IMG/VR virus record: IMGVR_UViG_3300020577_002562
Location: 1-64,000 of that record
DNA length: 64,000 nucleotides
Source: a virus
Taxonomy: Duplodnaviria; Caudoviricetes
Strand: one strand, 5' to 3'
This document shows positions 22,940 to 32,678 of the stretch, in pieces. Position 1 is the first letter of the stretch. Each line of letters begins with the position of its first letter. Made by a program: the position numbers and the translations under genes. The notes under the pieces were generated by a model. That model was not told where the DNA came from, did no database searches, and worked only from the letters and a program-made list of their open reading frames with translations.

Positions 22940-23145
22940 GTACGCAAGATGAGGAGTGCAAATGCTGCGGTTCACGACCTGACGCTAGAAAGAGGTATCT
23001 GGGTGGTATAGATGCATCAGAACGTACGAAGGTTGAAGAGTTCACAAAGTGCCCGTTCTGTTCAAGTCAGAAGTGTTGCATGTGTGACATGGGTAATGAT
23101 GTTCGTTGCACGTCATGTGTCGATGAAGAAGAGGACTACGAGTGA
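22936..23145 (+). CDS. Small Cys-rich protein
   Basis: AAGGAG SD; multiple CxxC. Confidence 0.6.
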   Translation: MSTQDEECKCCGSRPDARKRYLGGIDASERTKVEEFTKCPFCSSQKCCMCDMGNDVRCTSCVDEEEDYE

Positions 23146-23918
23146 AGATCAAAGTCAAGCCGGTGGCCGGTAAGAAAATCAAGACCGCTAAGCCCACTAA
23201 GACCAAGAAGGGGTTTCTACCAGATCGCGAGAAGCTCAGTGCAACCAAGAACAAGGGGCCGTTGGTAGTCAAAGTCACCAAGGGTGAGAAGAAAGCGGAC
23301 ACCACCTCCGGTAAGCGCCGAGTCGACCCACAGTCCGTTAAGGATCTGAAGGGGGCAAGCTACAACCCTCGATACATCAGCGAAGCTCAACTCAAGCGTC
23401 TGAAGATCTCGATGGAAAGCTTCGGCGACTTGAGCGGTATCGTGTTCAATGTAGCGTCAGGTGTGTTGATCAGCGGACATCAGAGGTTGAAGACCCTAAG
23501 CGGGAAGAAGTCTAAGCTGGTCAAGAAGGCAGTTCAAGACAAGCGCGGCACCGTGGCTGAAGGTCAGCTTGTAGTTGTCGAGTCTGACGGTAGCAAGACC
23601 AGAATCCCGTACCGGGAAGTAAACTGGTCAGATCAGCAGACTGAGATTGCCGCTAACATTGCAGCCAATGCCCACGGTGGTGAGTTTGACGACATTAAGC
23701 TGGGCGGTCTGCTGCACAAGTTGCACAAGGGCAAGTTCGACATCGAACTGACTGGTATCAGTGAACTGGACTTTCGCAAGATGGTCATTGACTTCCGAAA
23801 GGGCAAAGGTAGTTCCGTCACGGAAGTTAAACCAGACGACGACACGCCGACCGGGAAGAATGCAGAGTCTGGTTCCAAGTGCAAGTGCCCACGGTGTGGA
23901 TTCAAGTTTCTAGCGTGA
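23142..23918 (+). CDS. ParB/Srx-like N-terminal domain protein with a C-terminal Zn ribbon
   Basis: YNPRYIS...LKISMESFG....IVFN...LISGHQRL; NIAAN..GGEFD; KCPRCGFKF. Confidence 0.85.
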   Translation: MKIKVKPVAGKKIKTAKPTKTKKGFLPDREKLSATKNKGPLVVKVTKGEKKADTTSGKRRVDPQSVKDLKGASYNPRYISEAQLKRLKISMESFGDLSGIVFNVASGVLISGHQRLKTLSGKKSKLVKKAVQDKRGTVAEGQLVVVESDGSKTRIPYREVNWSDQQTEIAANIAANAHGGEFDDIKLGGLLHKLHKGKFDIELTGISELDFRKMVIDFRKGKGSSVTEVKPDDDTPTGKNAESGSKCKCPRCGFKFLA

Positions 23919-25562: not shown

Positions 25563-25850
25563 ATGACACAACCACTGTCCCAAGAAGCGGCTTTCGCTCT
25601 AGGCGCCGAAGCTATGAAGTCCAAGATCACTGCTTGGCTGATGATGAATGGATACATGACTGTAGCACCCAAAGTGCTGACGTTGGAGAACCCCGCTTTT
25701 TCTATGCCAGAGTCGGTGACTATCGAACCGATCAAGCAAGCAGCAGAAACCCGCAGAGTCAATGTTGCAAGTTGCAACTGCAACGATATGGCCGGGCAGT
25801 CTTTTTTCGAGTGGCGGTGTCCCGTACATGGCTACCAAAGTGACGCATGA
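25563..25850 (+). CDS. Hypothetical protein
   Basis: ATGA overlap with the MTase gene. Confidence 0.55.
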   Translation: MTQPLSQEAAFALGAEAMKSKITAWLMMNGYMTVAPKVLTLENPAFSMPESVTIEPIKQAAETRRVNVASCNCNDMAGQSFFEWRCPVHGYQSDA

Positions 25851-26848
25851 AATACACAGTCTTGAACCTACCAACGATGGAGCGAATCAACGCCAAGCCC
25901 AAGAAAGCCGGCGTTGCCGTTTCTCTGTTCAGCGGAATGGGTGGGGGTAGCATAGGATTGAAGCTGGCTGGCTACGAAGTACGGTACGCTAATGAGTTCA
26001 TCCCGATCGCGCGAAAGACGTATAGAAAGAACGCTCGGGGCACGTATTGTGATGGACGTGACATCCGCAAAGTCAAGCCCAAGGACATTCTGGAAGTTAT
26101 TGGTTGTAAGCCTGGAGAAGTGGACTTGCTTGAAATGTCCCCGCCCTGCAAAGTCTTCAGTGCAGCGCAAGCACGCAACCGAGAGAAGAATGTAGGCCAG
26201 GTTATCAACTACTCGGAGAACGTCAAGCAACGAGTAGACGATCTATTCTTCGAGGGGTGCCGCATTCTCAAGGGTATTCAACCGCGTGCATTCATTGCTG
26301 AGAACGTGAAGGGACTGTTGGCAGAAGCTAACAAGTCCATCTTCAAGGAGGTGTATCGAGCATTGGAGCGATGCGGCTACAGAGTCAAGGCCGCAGTGCT
26401 GAACGGCACAGACTTTGGCGTACCTCAAGCTCGTGAGCGTTTGATCTTCATTGGCATCCGCAAAGACTTAGGGATTGAACCGCAATTTCCCGACATCAGT
26501 GAACACAAACCAGTGTACGTGCAGGATGCACTGCCTCATGTGGCGAAGATCAAGACTGGCCGCAAATTCGTACAGGCGAAGAGTAACTTCATCTCGACGA
26601 TCACGGCAGCCGACTCGGCCATCAGTTTCACGGCCCAGTTTTCAGCAGGAGGCTTCTGTGAGACAGTCGACGGCACCATACGCAAGTTCACTATCAAGGA
26701 ACTCAAGCTGTTAAGTAGTGTACCGCAAGACTTCAAGCTGATCGGAACATTCAAACAACGCTGGGAACGATTAGGTCGAATCCATCTGCCACTGCAAGTC
26801 TACTACTTGGCCTCCACTCTACGAAAGCAACTGAAAGCTGCAACATGA
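25847..26848 (+). CDS. C5-cytosine DNA methyltransferase-family enzyme with motif-X Asn->Arg; candidate DNA carboxymethyltransferase
   Basis: Motif I LFSGMGG, IV SPPC (C101), VI AENVKG, VIII GVPQARER, IX RKFTIKE, X ERLGR(311)IHLP in place of GN. Confidence 0.9.
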   Translation: MKYTVLNLPTMERINAKPKKAGVAVSLFSGMGGGSIGLKLAGYEVRYANEFIPIARKTYRKNARGTYCDGRDIRKVKPKDILEVIGCKPGEVDLLEMSPPCKVFSAAQARNREKNVGQVINYSENVKQRVDDLFFEGCRILKGIQPRAFIAENVKGLLAEANKSIFKEVYRALERCGYRVKAAVLNGTDFGVPQARERLIFIGIRKDLGIEPQFPDISEHKPVYVQDALPHVAKIKTGRKFVQAKSNFISTITAADSAISFTAQFSAGGFCETVDGTIRKFTIKELKLLSSVPQDFKLIGTFKQRWERLGRIHLPLQVYYLASTLRKQLKAAT

Positions 26849-27108
26849 CATTCTTGCCTACTGGATCAACAGATCTGACAGAAGACGATGACATCGATCA
26901 GGTAGATCAACAGTACATGACACCATTGCTCGGAAAGATCGTCCATGATCTGGGTGGCAAATACTTCATCCCTGCTGCGCAGTTGGGAACGAACGCGCTG
27001 TACTCGTTGGAAGTCTCCGAAGATGACACGGGTATAACCATCGTGTCCACCATAGTTGAACCGGGGGACAATGCCACATACGTAGCTCCAAGCCAAACGA
27101 GGAACTGA
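26845..27108 (+). CDS. Small acidic hypothetical protein
   Basis: ATGA overlap with the MTase gene. Confidence 0.6.
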   Translation: MTFLPTGSTDLTEDDDIDQVDQQYMTPLLGKIVHDLGGKYFIPAAQLGTNALYSLEVSEDDTGITIVSTIVEPGDNATYVAPSQTRN

Positions 27109-27109
27109 A

Positions 27110-27862
27110 ATGACTGATGTTCGAGTTGAAGGTTGTAGCACTAGTTCCGCACCCCAAGACCACGTACTGCCTTCTGGTCTTTGGAAGTTCGATGAAGAGG
27201 TCACCAAAGTCTTTGACGATATGCTGGCACGCAGCATACCTGGCTACGAGACAATGCGGTGGGCAACACATCAAGTTGGTGCTCAGTTTCTACAAGGTGA
27301 TTGGTCCACGGTCGTTGACATCGGAGCCTCACGAGGCGAGTCGGTGGACTGGTTCATCCAGAATCATCCGCGTCACAAGTACAAGCTGATCGAAATTTCG
27401 CAGCCCATGCGAGAGACTCTGGAAGCTCGGTACTCGGAGAACCCCGACGTTCGAGTCTGGAACCGTGATCTGCGTGAAGCTGATCAGGTTTTTGACAAGG
27501 TAGATGACTGCTCAATGATCTTGAGTGTGTTGACGTTGATGTTCGTTCCGATTGAGCACCGTCCGGCACTGGTGCGTGCAATGTGGGAGACGCTCAGACC
27601 AGGTGGCGTTCTGATCATGGTTGAGAAGATGTTGGGCGCCACACCGTTGCTGGATGCGAAGCTCAAGGACACGTACTACAAAATGAAGGCTGATAACGGC
27701 TACACGCAAGATGAGATCCTGCGAAAGAAGCTGTCGCTGGAAGGTGTGTTGGTGCCTCTGACCGAAACGTGGAACCGAGACTTGTTGGAGCGGGCCGGCT
27801 TCAACCAGATTGACTACTTCTTCCGATGCCTTCAATTCGGCGGGTTCATCGCTGTAAAGTAA
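27110..27862 (+). CDS. cmoA: CmoA-like carboxy-S-adenosylmethionine synthase
   Basis: WKFDEEVTKVFDDMLARSIPGY, VDIGASRG, LTLMFV, GGVLIMVEK, K.DNGYT..EI.RK..SLEGV, FFRCLQFGGFIAVK all parallel CmoA motifs. Confidence 0.8.
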   Translation: MTDVRVEGCSTSSAPQDHVLPSGLWKFDEEVTKVFDDMLARSIPGYETMRWATHQVGAQFLQGDWSTVVDIGASRGESVDWFIQNHPRHKYKLIEISQPMRETLEARYSENPDVRVWNRDLREADQVFDKVDDCSMILSVLTLMFVPIEHRPALVRAMWETLRPGGVLIMVEKMLGATPLLDAKLKDTYYKMKADNGYTQDEILRKKLSLEGVLVPLTETWNRDLLERAGFNQIDYFFRCLQFGGFIAVK

Positions 27863-27865
27863 TCG

Positions 27866-28288
27866 ATGAAGAAGACCTACAATCCGTACCGTAACTTGCT
27901 GGCTAAGGTGCGGTATCTACTCCATACCGACGCGAAGATGACTGAAGCCCAATTGACTGACCACCAGTGGATGCTTATGGCGAAAGTGGCGGGGTCTCAA
28001 GTGCTTGTCGGTAAGGGTGGGGTGAACACCATGTTCTATCAATTCGGGGACCGCAAGCGCAAAGTGTGCGGCCCTATGGAACTGGTAGAGTTGTTGAAGA
28101 GGTTGAGCAGGCGTCGGTACGTTGCTTACCGAGTGAATGATACCTTAGCTTGGAGTGAGAAGACTGCTTTAGCAGCCGATCCTAAGCCAAAGACAAAGAT
28201 CATCGGCATTCGCGCCGATGGTAAGGAAGTAGTCGTGTATACTGCCACAAAGACGTTGCAGGGGTATCAATGGGCAAAGGTCGAGTGA
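27866..28288 (+). CDS. Hypothetical basic protein
   Basis: Within the modification cluster. Confidence 0.7.
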   Translation: MKKTYNPYRNLLAKVRYLLHTDAKMTEAQLTDHQWMLMAKVAGSQVLVGKGGVNTMFYQFGDRKRKVCGPMELVELLKRLSRRRYVAYRVNDTLAWSEKTALAADPKPKTKIIGIRADGKEVVVYTATKTLQGYQWAKVE

Positions 28289-29160
28289 TTCCCCGAGAAG
28301 CTTTCAAGCAACACGAGAAACTAGCTAAGGCGTTGCATTCTAGATTGCTTGAACTTGTCGCTCCGTTGCCTAAACGAGTTGCTGTGTTGTTGTCTTCAGG
28401 GGTAGATAGTCATGCAGTGCTGTTCGCTTGTTTGGAAGCCAAGAAACAGGTAGCCACGTACACGTTTGGTGTGCGCGGAGTATCATCTAAGGATGTTCGT
28501 GTGGCCGCTCGTACAGCGGACGAATTGAAACTACCTTGGACGTTCATTGAGCTTAATCCGTCGGTAGAAGAATTGCGCTCTTACCTTAGGCTTTTGTACT
28601 CCGACAGTGTGGGCGCCAAGATCCACATTAACAAGAGTTCAGTGGAATGCCTGTGGCCTATGCTTAGAACTCTACCTCATGTTGATGAGAAGTGTGTGGT
28701 TGTTGGTATGGGCGGAGATGTGCCTTACGCCACGACTAGATCCACAAAGAAGCAGGCACTACACTCTTTTGAAGAGCATCTTAAAGCCCGACAAGAATAC
28801 GCAAGAACCGCATCGCGTCGCAAAGATCCGCAGTCAGTTTGTACAGACAACTGGATTGCGGCAAATCGTCGAGGCATGAGAGTAGTGCAGCCGTTAGCAG
28901 ACCCGAGATTTCTAGAACTGCATCGGAGTATGCACCCTATACACGAGGGGTGGAATCCGATACAGAAAGCCCCTTTGCGTCTTGCCTTCTACGATTGGTT
29001 TGCACGATGCCCAGCGTTGATTCATCAGTCCTACAATGCAGGAGACACAGGAATCAGTGATGCCTTCGAGAAGTTGCTGACCCAGTCTTTTGAAGGCAAA
29101 AAATTCAAGTCGGTGCGGGGGCTGTACTCCGCTATAGAGCGAGGAGAAGTCAAACCATGA
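28270..29160 (+). CDS. Asparagine-synthetase-like ATP-dependent amide ligase (synthetase domain only)
   Basis: PP-loop VAVLLSSGVDS, TYTFG, VVVGMGGD, QK.PLR; no N-terminal Cys glutaminase domain. Confidence 0.8.
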   Translation: MGKGRVIPREAFKQHEKLAKALHSRLLELVAPLPKRVAVLLSSGVDSHAVLFACLEAKKQVATYTFGVRGVSSKDVRVAARTADELKLPWTFIELNPSVEELRSYLRLLYSDSVGAKIHINKSSVECLWPMLRTLPHVDEKCVVVGMGGDVPYATTRSTKKQALHSFEEHLKARQEYARTASRRKDPQSVCTDNWIAANRRGMRVVQPLADPRFLELHRSMHPIHEGWNPIQKAPLRLAFYDWFARCPALIHQSYNAGDTGISDAFEKLLTQSFEGKKFKSVRGLYSAIERGEVKP

Positions 29161-29872: not shown

Positions 29873-30294
29873 CTGCCGAACAGATCCTGACGGCGTGCCC
29901 ACCACGAGTTGCAGTTGGCGCAAAGACAGTGATCATCAAAGATGCGAAGCCCTCTGTCACCAAAGACAAGAGACAGCGTATCGTCTGCAAGATCATCTCG
30001 ACAAATACCCTTGACGGCAACCGCAAACCACCACCTCCAGTCAAGACGCACACGTCAACAGTTGAAGCCCTGGTGCCAGATAAGTACATACGCGACCGCG
30101 ATGTGCCTGTGCGCGTGTCATGTACTTGCGATGATTTCTGGGCCACTTGGGAGGTTGCCTTGTTCAAGCGTGGCGCTGCTAAGATCCAGTTCTCGAACGG
30201 TGAACTGCCAGTAGAAAAGAACCCTCGGATGATCCCTGGGTGCTGTAAGCATCTGTACAAGATGCTGCAACAGATTAGAGGTCGACGTATCTGA
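29857..30294 (+). CDS. SWIM-type Zn-finger protein
   Basis: VSCTCDDF...NP..IPGCCKHL. Confidence 0.8.
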   Translation: MPKQMTAEQILTACPPRVAVGAKTVIIKDAKPSVTKDKRQRIVCKIISTNTLDGNRKPPPPVKTHTSTVEALVPDKYIRDRDVPVRVSCTCDDFWATWEVALFKRGAAKIQFSNGELPVEKNPRMIPGCCKHLYKMLQQIRGRRI

Positions 30295-31283
30295 TGTCAA
30301 GCGATGTCATCAACAAGCTGAAGAGCATAAAGGAAGTTCTGGAGGACAACTACAGCACCGAGCAACTCTTTGATGTGCTCGATGCTTTGTTGTATGCTGG
30401 GACTTTCTACATGCTCTGGTGCTCCTCGTATTTAGAGCACCAACTGATGCTGATCAATAGCTGGTACACTACGTCCCAGCGACGCAAGATCTCACGACTG
30501 CCTAAGGACAAGTTCGCCGCAGCCGTTGTATGCTTGCGAGTCAGCACAGCAGCTTCCTCTGATGACAAGCTTTCTGTAGTGCGGAATCTAGGACTAGAGC
30601 GAAACTTGCTGATCTACCACATGGACCAATGGTTGAAGCAGGTAGAAAAGATTTCCCAGTGTCAGCATCGTGATCAACAGCAATTCATGATGGATGAGCT
30701 TAGGGTAGACAACCCTGAGAGGCTATGGCTAGCCGCACGTTCTGTAAAGTATTTCTTGAACGAAGCGCTTCAATTTCGGGAGCATATCAGCCAGAAGTAC
30801 ATGCGGCTGGTGGTGAACGAGGTGGCAGCGCACGCCAAACGCCAACACGATCTGACGGGGTCCAGACAAGATCCAAGTGACATCGCGCAGAACTTTATGC
30901 TGGCAGTGTACAAGGCGATTGACAAGTGCGATCCACTTAAGGGCACGTTGACATCGTATGTGCTACAGTGGATCGGCAACGCTAAGACCTCGGTTCAATT
31001 CAGAGATGAAACTGGTACCGCATACTTGCTGCCGTCGGCCAAGCGAGGCGAAGTAGTCAACTTCACGGTAGACACTGATGCTGAGGTACTAAACAACGTT
31101 GCCACTGACGAACTCAGTCACGAAAGTAACTTGGAGAGAAAGCAACGACTAGAAGAAGTACGAAAGATCGCACGACAAGCAGACCCTAAGGGATACGGTC
31201 GTCTGCTTCTTGGTATCACCGAACTCTTATCCGAGTCAGAGGTTCGGTTGTTGAAGATGAACTCGGTAAGCGCAAAAAGGTAA
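30294..31283 (+). CDS. Divergent sigma70-region-2-like phage sigma factor
   Basis: MRLVV..A.....DIAQNFMLAVYKAIDKCDP.KGTLTSYVLQWI. Confidence 0.7.
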   Translation: MSSDVINKLKSIKEVLEDNYSTEQLFDVLDALLYAGTFYMLWCSSYLEHQLMLINSWYTTSQRRKISRLPKDKFAAAVVCLRVSTAASSDDKLSVVRNLGLERNLLIYHMDQWLKQVEKISQCQHRDQQQFMMDELRVDNPERLWLAARSVKYFLNEALQFREHISQKYMRLVVNEVAAHAKRQHDLTGSRQDPSDIAQNFMLAVYKAIDKCDPLKGTLTSYVLQWIGNAKTSVQFRDETGTAYLLPSAKRGEVVNFTVDTDAEVLNNVATDELSHESNLERKQRLEEVRKIARQADPKGYGRLLLGITELLSESEVRLLKMNSVSAKR

Positions 31284-31289
31284 CCACAC

Positions 31290-32678
31290 ATGGCACGCGA
31301 GTTTAGCCGCACACGAGGTCGTAGTTTCAGTGAGATCAAACCGTCCATGGGCGGTCGTTCCAATTACAAGTGGACGGAGCATGTAGACGCTCTAGACTGG
31401 GGTAACGGTGATTACCGTACAGTTCGCCTGGTAGGTGGAGTGTATGAACATGGACAGCACTCCATCACCATTGAATACTCCAAGAAGGGCAGCAAGAAGA
31501 CAAACATCATTCCGATCACCAAAACTTGCTTGGCTTGGGATCCTGAAGCAGGTGCTCGTGTCACAGACAAGAAGTGTCCATACTGCAAGTTGAAGAACCA
31601 ACAGTTCAAGGTCGTGTGTACGTCGAATGTCATCGACCGGGAAGCGCAAGAGAACGCGCCCAAGAAAGCCAAACCGTATACCAAGAAGGAGATCAAGCTC
31701 GGTTTCAAGCTGGTGGATGAAGACTCTTGGTCACCGATTCGAGTTATCAAAGCGCCTTCCACGCTGGTCAAACGAATCAAGAAGGTCGGTGAACGAAACA
31801 TCACCAAAGTCAAAGGGAAGAAGGTCAAGTTTGATCTGGCGCACCCCAAGTACGGATGCGACATTGAAGTCAAGTTTGACAAGGACGAATCTCCGTCCGA
31901 TATGTACGATGCTGTCAAGTCGGACGAGGGCAAGGTGCCGCTGACTGAGGAAGAGCGCGGTCTGCTGCTGTTTGATCTAAGCAAGCTGTTTCCGGCGGAA
32001 GATCTGGCTACTGCCAAGAAGGAAGCGGAGCAACTCGCCAAGAAAGCTCCTAAGTCGGACGAGGATGACTCTGAGGATGATGGTGACTATGACGATGACG
32101 ATGAGGAGGAAGAGAAACCCAAGAAGGGGAAGAAGAGCAAGTCCAAGAAGCGCAAGTCCGATGATGACGATGAAGACGACTCTGACATCGATGAGGACGA
32201 TGACTCGGATGAGGACGATGACTCGGATGATGACGATGACGATGACGATGAGGAAGAAGAGAAGCCCAAGAAGGGGAAGAAGAGCAAGTCCAAGAAGGAC
32301 GATGATGAGGATGACGATGACGACGAGGATGATGACGACTCCGATGATGAGGATGATGACGACTCGGATGACTCCGATGATGAGGATGAAGAGGTAGATG
32401 ACGATGACGACGAAGACGCTGAGGAGTCCTCTAAGTCCAAGAAGTCCAAGAAGTCCTCGAAGTCCAAGAAGCCAGCCAAGTCCACGAAATCTGCGAAGTC
32501 CAAGAAGTCCTCGAAGTCCGACGACGAGGACGAAGAAGACTTAGACGATCTGGATGATCTGGACGACGAAGATTCTGATGACGATGAGGAAGAAGAGAAG
32601 CCCAAGAAGGGTAAGAAGTCCAGTGGCAAGAAACGTAAGGCCAAAGACGAAGATGACGACGAGGATGATGACGAGTAA
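31290..32678 (+). CDS. gp32-like ssDNA-binding protein with a very long charged tail
   Basis: VRLVG, CLAWD...CPYC, YGCDIEVK...Y; adjacent to RecA; ~200-aa D/E/K/S tail. Confidence 0.65.
   Translation: MAREFSRTRGRSFSEIKPSMGGRSNYKWTEHVDALDWGNGDYRTVRLVGGVYEHGQHSITIEYSKKGSKKTNIIPITKTCLAWDPEAGARVTDKKCPYCKLKNQQFKVVCTSNVIDREAQENAPKKAKPYTKKEIKLGFKLVDEDSWSPIRVIKAPSTLVKRIKKVGERNITKVKGKKVKFDLAHPKYGCDIEVKFDKDESPSDMYDAVKSDEGKVPLTEEERGLLLFDLSKLFPAEDLATAKKEAEQLAKKAPKSDEDDSEDDGDYDDDDEEEEKPKKGKKSKSKKRKSDDDDEDDSDIDEDDDSDEDDDSDDDDDDDDEEEEKPKKGKKSKSKKDDDEDDDDDEDDDDSDDEDDDDSDDSDDEDEEVDDDDDEDAEESSKSKKSKKSSKSKKPAKSTKSAKSKKSSKSDDEDEEDLDDLDDLDDEDSDDDEEEEKPKKGKKSSGKKRKAKDEDDDEDDDE

Follow-up and report, generated by a model that had tools for sequence, protein, structure and literature searches.

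The closest described counterpart of the gene cluster considered here is the CmoA-CmoX-CmoY pathway of Synechococcus phage S-B43, which was reported by Yang et al. (Nat Commun, Dec 2025; PMC12783734) on the basis of biochemistry, a crystal structure and mass spectrometry of virion DNA. In this pathway, SpCmoA produces carboxy-S-adenosylmethionine (Cx-SAM), SpCmoX, a homolog of the DNA cytosine C5-methyltransferases (C5-MTases), uses Cx-SAM only, and not S-adenosylmethionine (SAM), to form 5-carboxymethylcytosine (5cxmC) at GpC, and SpCmoY ligates glycine onto 5cxmC in an ATP-dependent fashion; the resulting glycine amide of 5cxmC is contained in S-B43 virion DNA, and 5cxmC protects DNA against HhaI (PMC12783734). 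In SpCmoX (structure 8YF3), residue R350 contacts the carboxylate of Cx-SAM, and CmoX proteins are defined bioinformatically by an SPPC motif and by Arg350 in place of the motif-X asparagine (N304 of HhaI). By these signatures, 5,615 CmoX candidates were collected from IMG/VR v4, UniProt and MGnify, alongside 4,257 CmoA proteins, 2,251 ligases and 1,660 ParBc proteins (PMC12783734). A literature search found no further paper on a natural 5cxmC system. Here, we have analyzed a stretch of 64,000 nucleotides (the window), which represents the first 64 kb of the 187,209-bp viral record IMGVR_UViG_3300020577_002562, and we propose that a gene cluster at positions 25847-29160 encodes the CmoA-CmoX-CmoY route to hypermodified DNA in a jumbo-phage form, a reading to which we assign a probability of about 0.85. 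The pathway itself is already published, and the cluster is a divergent new member of it rather than a new pathway. A preliminary description of this DNA had mentioned a comparable pathway reported for a cyanophage; this was right and concerns the study on S-B43.

The cluster comprises five open reading frames (ORFs), all of which run in the same direction on the plus strand: a predicted CmoX-type DNA cytosine C5-carboxymethyltransferase of 333 aa (25847-26848), an acidic 87-aa orphan referred to as orf87 (26845-27108), a predicted CmoA-type carboxy-SAM synthase of 250 aa (27110-27862), a basic protein of 140 aa, orf140 (27866-28288), and a predicted AMP-forming amide ligase of the CmoY family, which has 296 aa and represents a divergent clade (28270-29160). 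The ORF coordinates confirm this arrangement as previously outlined, and the junctions, which measure -4, +1, +3 and -19 nt in this order, bear out the description of the operon as tightly coupled. Likewise, the initial assignment of the three larger proteins to a C5-MTase, a CmoA-like protein and an asparagine-synthetase-like PP-loop ligase agrees with Pfam, NCBIfam and structure matches. The first of them, the 333-aa protein, is a member of the C5-MTase family PF00145 (E 4.6e-47; Pfam). Among solved structures its best match is 8yf3, that is, SpCmoX, with an E-value of 1.8e-48, compared with 1e-21 for HaeIII and 1e-16 for HhaI. The SPPC motif is formed by residues S98-P99-P100-C101 and is invariant in the alignment with SpCmoX and with gp177 of the Pseudomonas jumbo phage PaBG; further C5-MTase motifs are ENV (motif VI) at position 152 and QARER (motif VIII) at positions 194-198. 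Residue Arg311, which is invariant in the CmoX alignment, occupies the position of R350 in SpCmoX and of the asparagine of the GN sequence (motif X) in HaeIII. Thus, by both published signatures, SPPC and an arginine at the R350 position, the predicted assignment of this enzyme to the CmoX type is well supported. Its identity amounts to 48% with PaBG gp177 and 36% with SpCmoX. The variable region is shorter than in SpCmoX (333 aa for the whole protein versus 372 aa), and a specificity for GpC can therefore not be assumed.

The predicted carboxy-SAM synthase belongs to TIGR00740 (E 8e-39; NCBIfam; the bit score is discussed below) and to phrog_4752 (E 1e-64; PHROGs), and it matches the CmoA structures 1im8 (E 1.3e-31) and 4gek (2.1e-25) end to end over residues 22-250. 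It is 40-47% identical to the CmoA proteins of PaBG (40%) and of Erwinia phages, and 29% identical to SpCmoA over the full length. We assessed this protein by calibration of its score against SpCmoA, without any claim at the level of single residues; Tyr200, Lys91 and Arg315, which had been considered as a CmoA active-site set, were rejected as they belong to CmoB. The protein is classed as a phage CmoA, a predicted Cx-SAM synthase, and not as a bacterial TIGR00740 equivalog. As a separate observation, locus L015, whose ligase and CmoX make it the nearest relative, has a strongly divergent CmoA (L015:4784-5530): this protein reaches 78 bits on the family hidden Markov model (HMM) and is 26% identical to that of the window, as compared to 40-46% for more distant phages.

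The three families also occur together in related phages. A scan of viral contigs with the single ligase sequence returned nothing, and an alignment-based scan was needed; with the ligase alignment as query, IMG/VR yielded 80 viral loci, which were then searched locally with HMMs within about 6 kb of the ligase. CmoA was found within this distance in 76 and CmoX in 65 of the 80 loci, in several gene orders, so that the co-occurrence on which the preliminary description had made its proposal depend is indeed present. In PaBG the order is ParB-like gene, C5-MTase, CmoA, a 150-aa protein and ligase, in S-B43 it is CmoA, CmoY and CmoX, and the Erwinia and Yersinia jumbo phages possess all three genes, with CmoA adjoining the ligase. 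The chain put forward earlier, from SAM to Cx-SAM, from cytosine to 5-carboxymethylcytosine and from the carboxylate to an amide, is thus supported by homologs of all three S-B43 enzymes and by the diagnostic residues of CmoX. In the proposed sequence of reactions, CmoA would convert SAM and prephenate to carboxy-SAM, as judged by its homology to a proven enzyme. CmoX, which carries Arg311 instead of the motif-X asparagine, is expected from these diagnostic residues to use Cx-SAM and not SAM, and would form 5-carboxymethylcytosine in double-stranded phage DNA after replication. Finally, the ligase would adenylate the carboxylate and couple an amine to it, which would result in an amide-linked hypermodified cytosine. 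By analogy with the protection of 5cxmC-containing DNA against HhaI in the published system, the modification would shield the phage DNA from host nucleases.

The ligase is the most divergent part of the cluster. It is a member of PF00733 (Asn_synthase) with an intact PP-loop (S42-S-G44-V-D46-S47; SSGVDS), and a glutaminase domain was found neither by Pfam and NCBIfam nor by the family profile and the fold match; the family profile aligns with residues 200-442 of AsnB only, and with beta-lactam synthetase. In its AlphaFold2 model, which has a pLDDT of 82.7, the fold resembles those of beta-lactam synthetase, carbapenam synthetase and AsnB (TMq 0.65-0.67). The ligase can be aligned end to end with SpCmoY at 25-28% identity (tblastn E 1e-6); it is 34-35% identical to PaBG gp180 and 38-41% identical to the ligase of L015, its only close relative. 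In a quick maximum-likelihood (ML) tree of 72 ligases, it is placed as sister to L015 only and outside the SpCmoY clade, which comprises 16 of the sequences (support 99). Of 26 columns that are conserved throughout the family, 22 are retained, the PP-loop included. Two arginines which are invariant in the SpCmoY clade only, R251 and R253 in SpCmoY numbering, correspond to F279 and S281 here and to Y/H and S in other clades. These arginines are candidate binders of the glycine carboxylate, as suggested by their distribution. In view of its placement in the tree and the replacement of R251 and R253, we have not filed this enzyme as a glycine ligase. Given its position outside the glycine-ligating clade and the loss of the two invariant arginines, an amine different from glycine appears slightly more likely than glycine as the predicted second substrate. 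The authors of the S-B43 study have explicitly left open the diversity of amines and consider other amines possible for ligase clusters outside that of SpCmoY (PMC12783734).

The gene between CmoA and the ligase might encode a further component of the system. The orf140 product belongs to phrog_23597 (PHROGs) and is a homolog of PaBG gp179, which occupies the same position. Members of this family are present in 23 of the 80 ligase loci, never in the SpCmoY clade, and lie beside CmoA or the ligase in at least four different orders (A-140-Y, Y-A-140, Y-140-A and A-Y-140); in Erwinia-type phages the homolog is located 1-3 kb downstream. A 13-kb Logan contig contains the MTase, two small ORFs, CmoA, a homolog 54% identical to orf140, the ligase and, later, a sigma factor. 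The family is small: a collection of 5.8 billion proteins contains only 32 clusters of it, whose members measure about 150 aa throughout, and within this collection neither a Pfam domain nor any fused or longer form was found. The protein has an isoelectric point (pI) of 10.0, and the residues W35, G49-K50, N54-T55, P70 and W136 are invariant within the family, with a motif VGKGGxNT. Its AlphaFold2 model is of high confidence (pLDDT 94.7); Foldseek returned nothing from the PDB at E < 0.1, and the ESM Atlas gave no usable match. The fold matches obtained by VIA-align are to Pur-alpha (3k44; Z 6.2, rmsd 3.6 over 80 residues) and YkuJ (Z 6.0) and, among Whirly-type proteins, to PBF-2 (Z 3.9) and MRP1/2 (Z 3.8). 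A complex prediction of CmoA, ligase and orf140 scored 0.02 against a mark of 0.32, which has no bearing on binding either way. From its gene context, which is the sole basis for this assignment, we propose that orf140 is a fourth component, a nucleic-acid-binding accessory factor, in PaBG-, Erwinia- and Yersinia-type jumbo phages. Taken together, it might be speculated that the ligases of the window, of L015 and of the 13-kb Logan relative attach a non-glycine amine, giving an undescribed base, and that orf140 acts as a hitherto unrecognized fourth, DNA-binding component of the CmoA/X/Y system in jumbo phages; this combined proposal is a tentative one, and we would not expect both parts to hold with even odds.

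Several observations weigh against the interpretation as a CmoA-CmoX-CmoY pathway or against its extension to a new amine and a fourth protein. For this particular phage the support consists of homology and gene context alone. CmoA reaches 133.7 bits and thus falls below the TIGR00740 equivalog cut-off of 193.3; however, the proven SpCmoA obtains only 115.6 bits, less than the window protein, and the proteins of PaBG and Erwinia phage Y3 obtain 130.5 and 142 bits, so that the cut-off mirrors the bacterial equivalogs and excludes functional phage enzymes. In the quick ML tree the branch of the ligase is long (1.54), and four of the 26 near-invariant columns are altered (G58K, N228W, Q256N and N275E); together, the changed columns and the long branch could reflect a new specificity as well as a decaying enzyme. 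The argument from the arginine pair is our own inference, as the text of the published study names no glycine-binding residues of SpCmoY (PMC12783734). With regard to orf140, all fold matches remain below the noise level of VIA-align (Z 7-8), and the synteny argument is weakened because related phages share ancestry. Finally, three of the five tRNAs encoded by the record have anticodons of the cmo5U type (Val-UAC, Pro-UGG and Thr-UGU), and Cx-SAM produced by the phage could, as a side effect, also feed the host CmoB and thereby help phage tRNA maturation.

The alternative that survives best concerns the amine. The product might be identical to that of S-B43, with glycine being attached to give 5-glycylcarboxymethylcytosine, which would make the cluster a straightforward ortholog without any new chemistry. 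Glycine is the only amine that has been demonstrated experimentally for this ligase family, and several smaller ligase clusters also retain the residues binding the glycine carboxylate (PMC12783734); in addition, the ligase shows homology to SpCmoY from end to end and likewise lacks a glutaminase domain. This has to be set against the low identity to SpCmoY of 25-28%, the position outside the well-supported SpCmoY clade, and the absence of the two clade-invariant arginines together with the alteration of four family-wide conserved columns. We regard glycine as a serious possibility, somewhat short of an even chance. Formation of a simple amide, 5-carbamoylmethylcytosine, from free ammonia is unlikely by comparison. 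Synthetase domains of the asparagine synthetase type may be able to use NH3, and a ligase of 296 aa would presumably leave little room for a pocket that accommodates a large substrate. However, no glutaminase domain is present to supply the ammonia, the ammonia route is predicted for a separate ligase cluster that has this domain, and the only characterized member without it uses glycine (PMC12783734). Thus, of the two end products named in the preliminary description, an amine conjugate stands, whereas 5-carbamoylmethylcytosine lacks a precedent, given that SpCmoY attaches glycine and that the ligase of the window has no glutaminase domain.

It is also conceivable, though very unlikely in our judgement, that the pathway ends at 5-carboxymethylcytosine due to a degenerate ligase, or that the ligase acts on a substrate other than DNA. 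The long branch and the four changed near-invariant columns would fit with degeneration, as would the low confidence of the model in segments 155-170 and 225-229. Yet the PP-loop and 22 of the 26 conserved columns are intact, the ORF is not truncated and shares 19 nt with orf140, the genes are arranged alike in the relative with the 54%-identical orf140 homolog, and fragments from independent samples are 99-100% identical over the ligase. The last alternative involves the tRNAs. It had been noted earlier that the window lacks both a tRNA and a CmoB-like gene; this holds, and CmoB is absent from the whole 187-kb record, with the correction that five tRNA genes lie some 105-115 kb past the window, at record positions 168396-178708 (Val(TAC), Pro(TGG), Arg(TCT), Thr(TGT) and Met(CAT)). 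In Gram-negative bacteria, the anticodons of tRNA-Val(UAC), tRNA-Pro(UGG) and tRNA-Thr(UGU) are of the type that receives cmo5U. That the MTase is an ordinary 5-methylcytosine methylase and that CmoA, a canonical tRNA-pathway enzyme, serves the formation of cmo5U34 by host CmoB, in these three phage tRNAs among others, is highly improbable in view of Arg311 in place of the motif-X asparagine and the SPPC motif, which are shared with the Cx-SAM-only SpCmoX, the lack of CmoB in the record, and the linkage of CmoA to MTase and ligase in 65-76 of 80 loci when the tRNAs are more than 100 kb away. A side benefit for tRNAs cannot explain the Arg311 MTase, the ligase and their conserved linkage.

Two further genes are associated with the proposed hypermodification cluster. 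The ParB-like ORF (23142-23918, plus strand) encodes a protein of 258 aa with similarity to ParB-N (ParBc) domains and a C-terminal CPxC motif, and is a homolog of PaBG gp176. It is located 1.9 kb upstream of CmoX, with six small ORFs in between, and is 47-58% identical to the gene directly 5' of CmoX in L015 and PaBG-type loci. As a single sequence it gave no Pfam match, and a genome scan with PF02195 was negative; the family profile, however, matched the N-terminal domain of ParB/Noc/Spo0J proteins in the PDB (7nfu, E 2.8e-12; 6sdk, 3.2e-10; 4umk, 5.4e-10). The family occurs in 34 of the 80 ligase loci, and its association with CmoX agrees with the published occurrence of ParBc proteins on numerous contigs that carry CmoX (PMC12783734). 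The predicted ParB-like protein is a recurrent associate and a member of the module. The small ORF orf87 encodes an acidic protein (pI 4.05; 14 D+E and 3 K+R) for which no relative was found in Pfam, PHROGs, NCBIfam, the named phages, the 80 related loci or the ESM Atlas, nor by an exhaustive HMMER search of 1.84 billion representative proteins. The gene begins within the last 4 nt of CmoX (ATGA) and is separated from CmoA by 1 nt, and all four variants listed from near-identical wastewater contigs are synonymous in its frame; this packing and the synonymous variants argue that orf87 is a real gene. The closer relative on the 13-kb Logan contig has two small ORFs at this place, of 73 and 57 aa. 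A role of orf87 as a chorismate mutase supplying prephenate was rejected, as a search of the record for CM_2 (PF01817) was negative. DNA mimics are sometimes found among the small acidic proteins of phages, and a similar function of orf87 would be pure speculation.

The cluster is part of a long co-directional gene train that extends upstream of the MTase, where a 95-aa ORF (25563-25850, plus strand) likewise overlaps the MTase start by 4 nt. As the 187,209 bp of the record correspond to a completeness of about 75% (CheckV), a jumbo phage of roughly 250 kb is suggested as the source. The nearest named relatives of the neighboring sigma-like factor and SSB-like protein are those of jumbo phages of Xanthomonas, Erwinia, Pseudomonas (PaBG) and Vibrio; a blastn search of the 3.3-kb cluster region against named phages gave no match. 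Both genes are located downstream of the cluster (30294-32678) and encode a protein containing a sigma-70 region 2 (phrog_17569) and an SSB-like protein (phrog_15004), and the same sigma-like gene also follows the cluster in the 13-kb Logan relative. Within the SSB-like gene, one wastewater contig skips 252 nt of the acidic C-terminal part (32180-32433), and other wastewater contigs have a different repeat-like sequence in this place, which suggests that the repetitive acidic tail varies in length among strains. A scan for promoters and terminators gave counts not above those of shuffled sequence. The whole stretch is contained in one sequencing run, which probably represents the source sample, and in four wastewater metatranscriptome runs of a single study, orf87/CmoA, orf140 and the ligase are covered by short contigs with 95-100% identity. 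A close relative thus occurs in wastewater; contigs from these RNA libraries cannot show transcription, and stretches they do not cover carry no meaning.

Some additional features were observed in the record and in related phages. In the 187-kb record, 6-bp palindromes are strongly avoided (median log2 observed/expected of -0.7) despite the predicted cytosine hypermodification; CGTACG occurs once where 50 copies are expected, CGATCG 5 times (58 expected) and AGTACT 5 times (55 expected). Palindromes with and without GpC showed no difference in depletion (p 0.65). Since the depletion is independent of GpC, it permits no inference on the target motif of CmoX, and palindrome statistics were rejected as a proxy for it. 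In Erwinia phages Y3 and pEa_SNUABM_5 and in Yersinia phage fHe-Yen9-02 (loci L008-L010 and L012-L014), the CmoX homologs are encoded by open frames of about 700 aa, at a distance of 14-18 kb from CmoA and the ligase; in these frames, about 1 kb of sequence (phrog_36001) is inserted between the N-terminal part, with motifs I-IV, and the C-terminal part. The same jumbo phages have a gene for a Dam-like MTase 1-3 kb from the ligase. In Erwinia phage Y3, a gene annotated as 'oxygenase' is located just downstream of the CmoA-ligase pair (L004:6074-6712), and its product could further process the modification in that lineage. Our literature search found no paper on DNA modification in PaBG-, Erwinia- or Yersinia-type jumbo phages, and the PaBG genome paper treats gp180 as a metabolic asparagine synthase only. 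Taking the window cluster as a member of the CmoA-CmoX-CmoY family extends the 5cxmC system to jumbo phages that infect Gram-negative bacteria, namely those of the PaBG, Erwinia and Yersinia types. Among these are several cultivable isolates, and hence the chemistry is directly testable on virion DNA. It also corrects the annotation in PaBG and related genomes, in which the genes now bear the names 'tRNA methyltransferase', 'asparagine synthase' and 'DNA cytosine methylase'. In addition, a ligase outside the glycine clade along with a conserved extra protein gives the search for new base chemistry and for new DNA-labelling enzymes a definite starting point.

In comparison with other systems, the window cluster shares with S-B43 the three clustered enzyme families, a CmoX with SPPC and the diagnostic arginine, a ligase without a glutaminase domain, the absence of CmoB and an associated ParBc-type protein. 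It differs from S-B43 in the gene order, which is X-(87)-A-(140)-Y here and A-Y-X there, in its low identity (36% for CmoX, 29% for CmoA and 25% for the ligase), in the additional small genes orf140, which is restricted to the jumbo-phage versions, and orf87, an orphan, and in a ligase that falls outside the SpCmoY clade and has neither R251 nor R253 of the S-B43-type ligases; moreover, S-B43 is a cyanomyovirus, whereas the window phage is a jumbo phage of the PaBG/Erwinia type. PaBG gp176-gp180 have the same order of ParB-like protein, C5-MTase, CmoA, basic protein of about 150 aa and ligase, with identities of 48% for CmoX, 40% for CmoA and 34-35% for the ligase, and the orf140 family in common. 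However, PaBG lacks orf87, and its ParB-like gene abuts CmoX, while 1.9 kb with six small ORFs lie between the two in the window. Erwinia phages (Y3, Yoloswag and SNUABM) and Yersinia phage fHe-Yen9-02, unlike the window, have the CmoX of about 700 aa at a distance of 14-18 kb from CmoA and the ligase. The bacterial CmoA/CmoB pathway for tRNA cmo5U34 starts with the same CmoA chemistry, the synthesis of Cx-SAM from SAM and prephenate; here, in contrast, the predicted acceptor enzyme is a DNA C5-MTase homolog, the target would be C5 of DNA cytosine and not ho5U of tRNA, and a ligase step is added. In the engineered carboxymethyltransferase M.MpeI N374K, exchange of the motif-X asparagine for a basic residue is likewise reported to switch the cofactor to Cx-SAM; M.MpeI targets CpG, and the window enzyme differs in being natural and of phage origin and in having an arginine instead of a lysine. 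AsnB, beta-lactam synthetase and carbapenam synthetase share with the ligase the fold of an adenylating PP-loop synthetase, from which the ligase departs by the lack of an N-terminal glutaminase domain and by its predicted substrate, a carboxylate on a DNA base.

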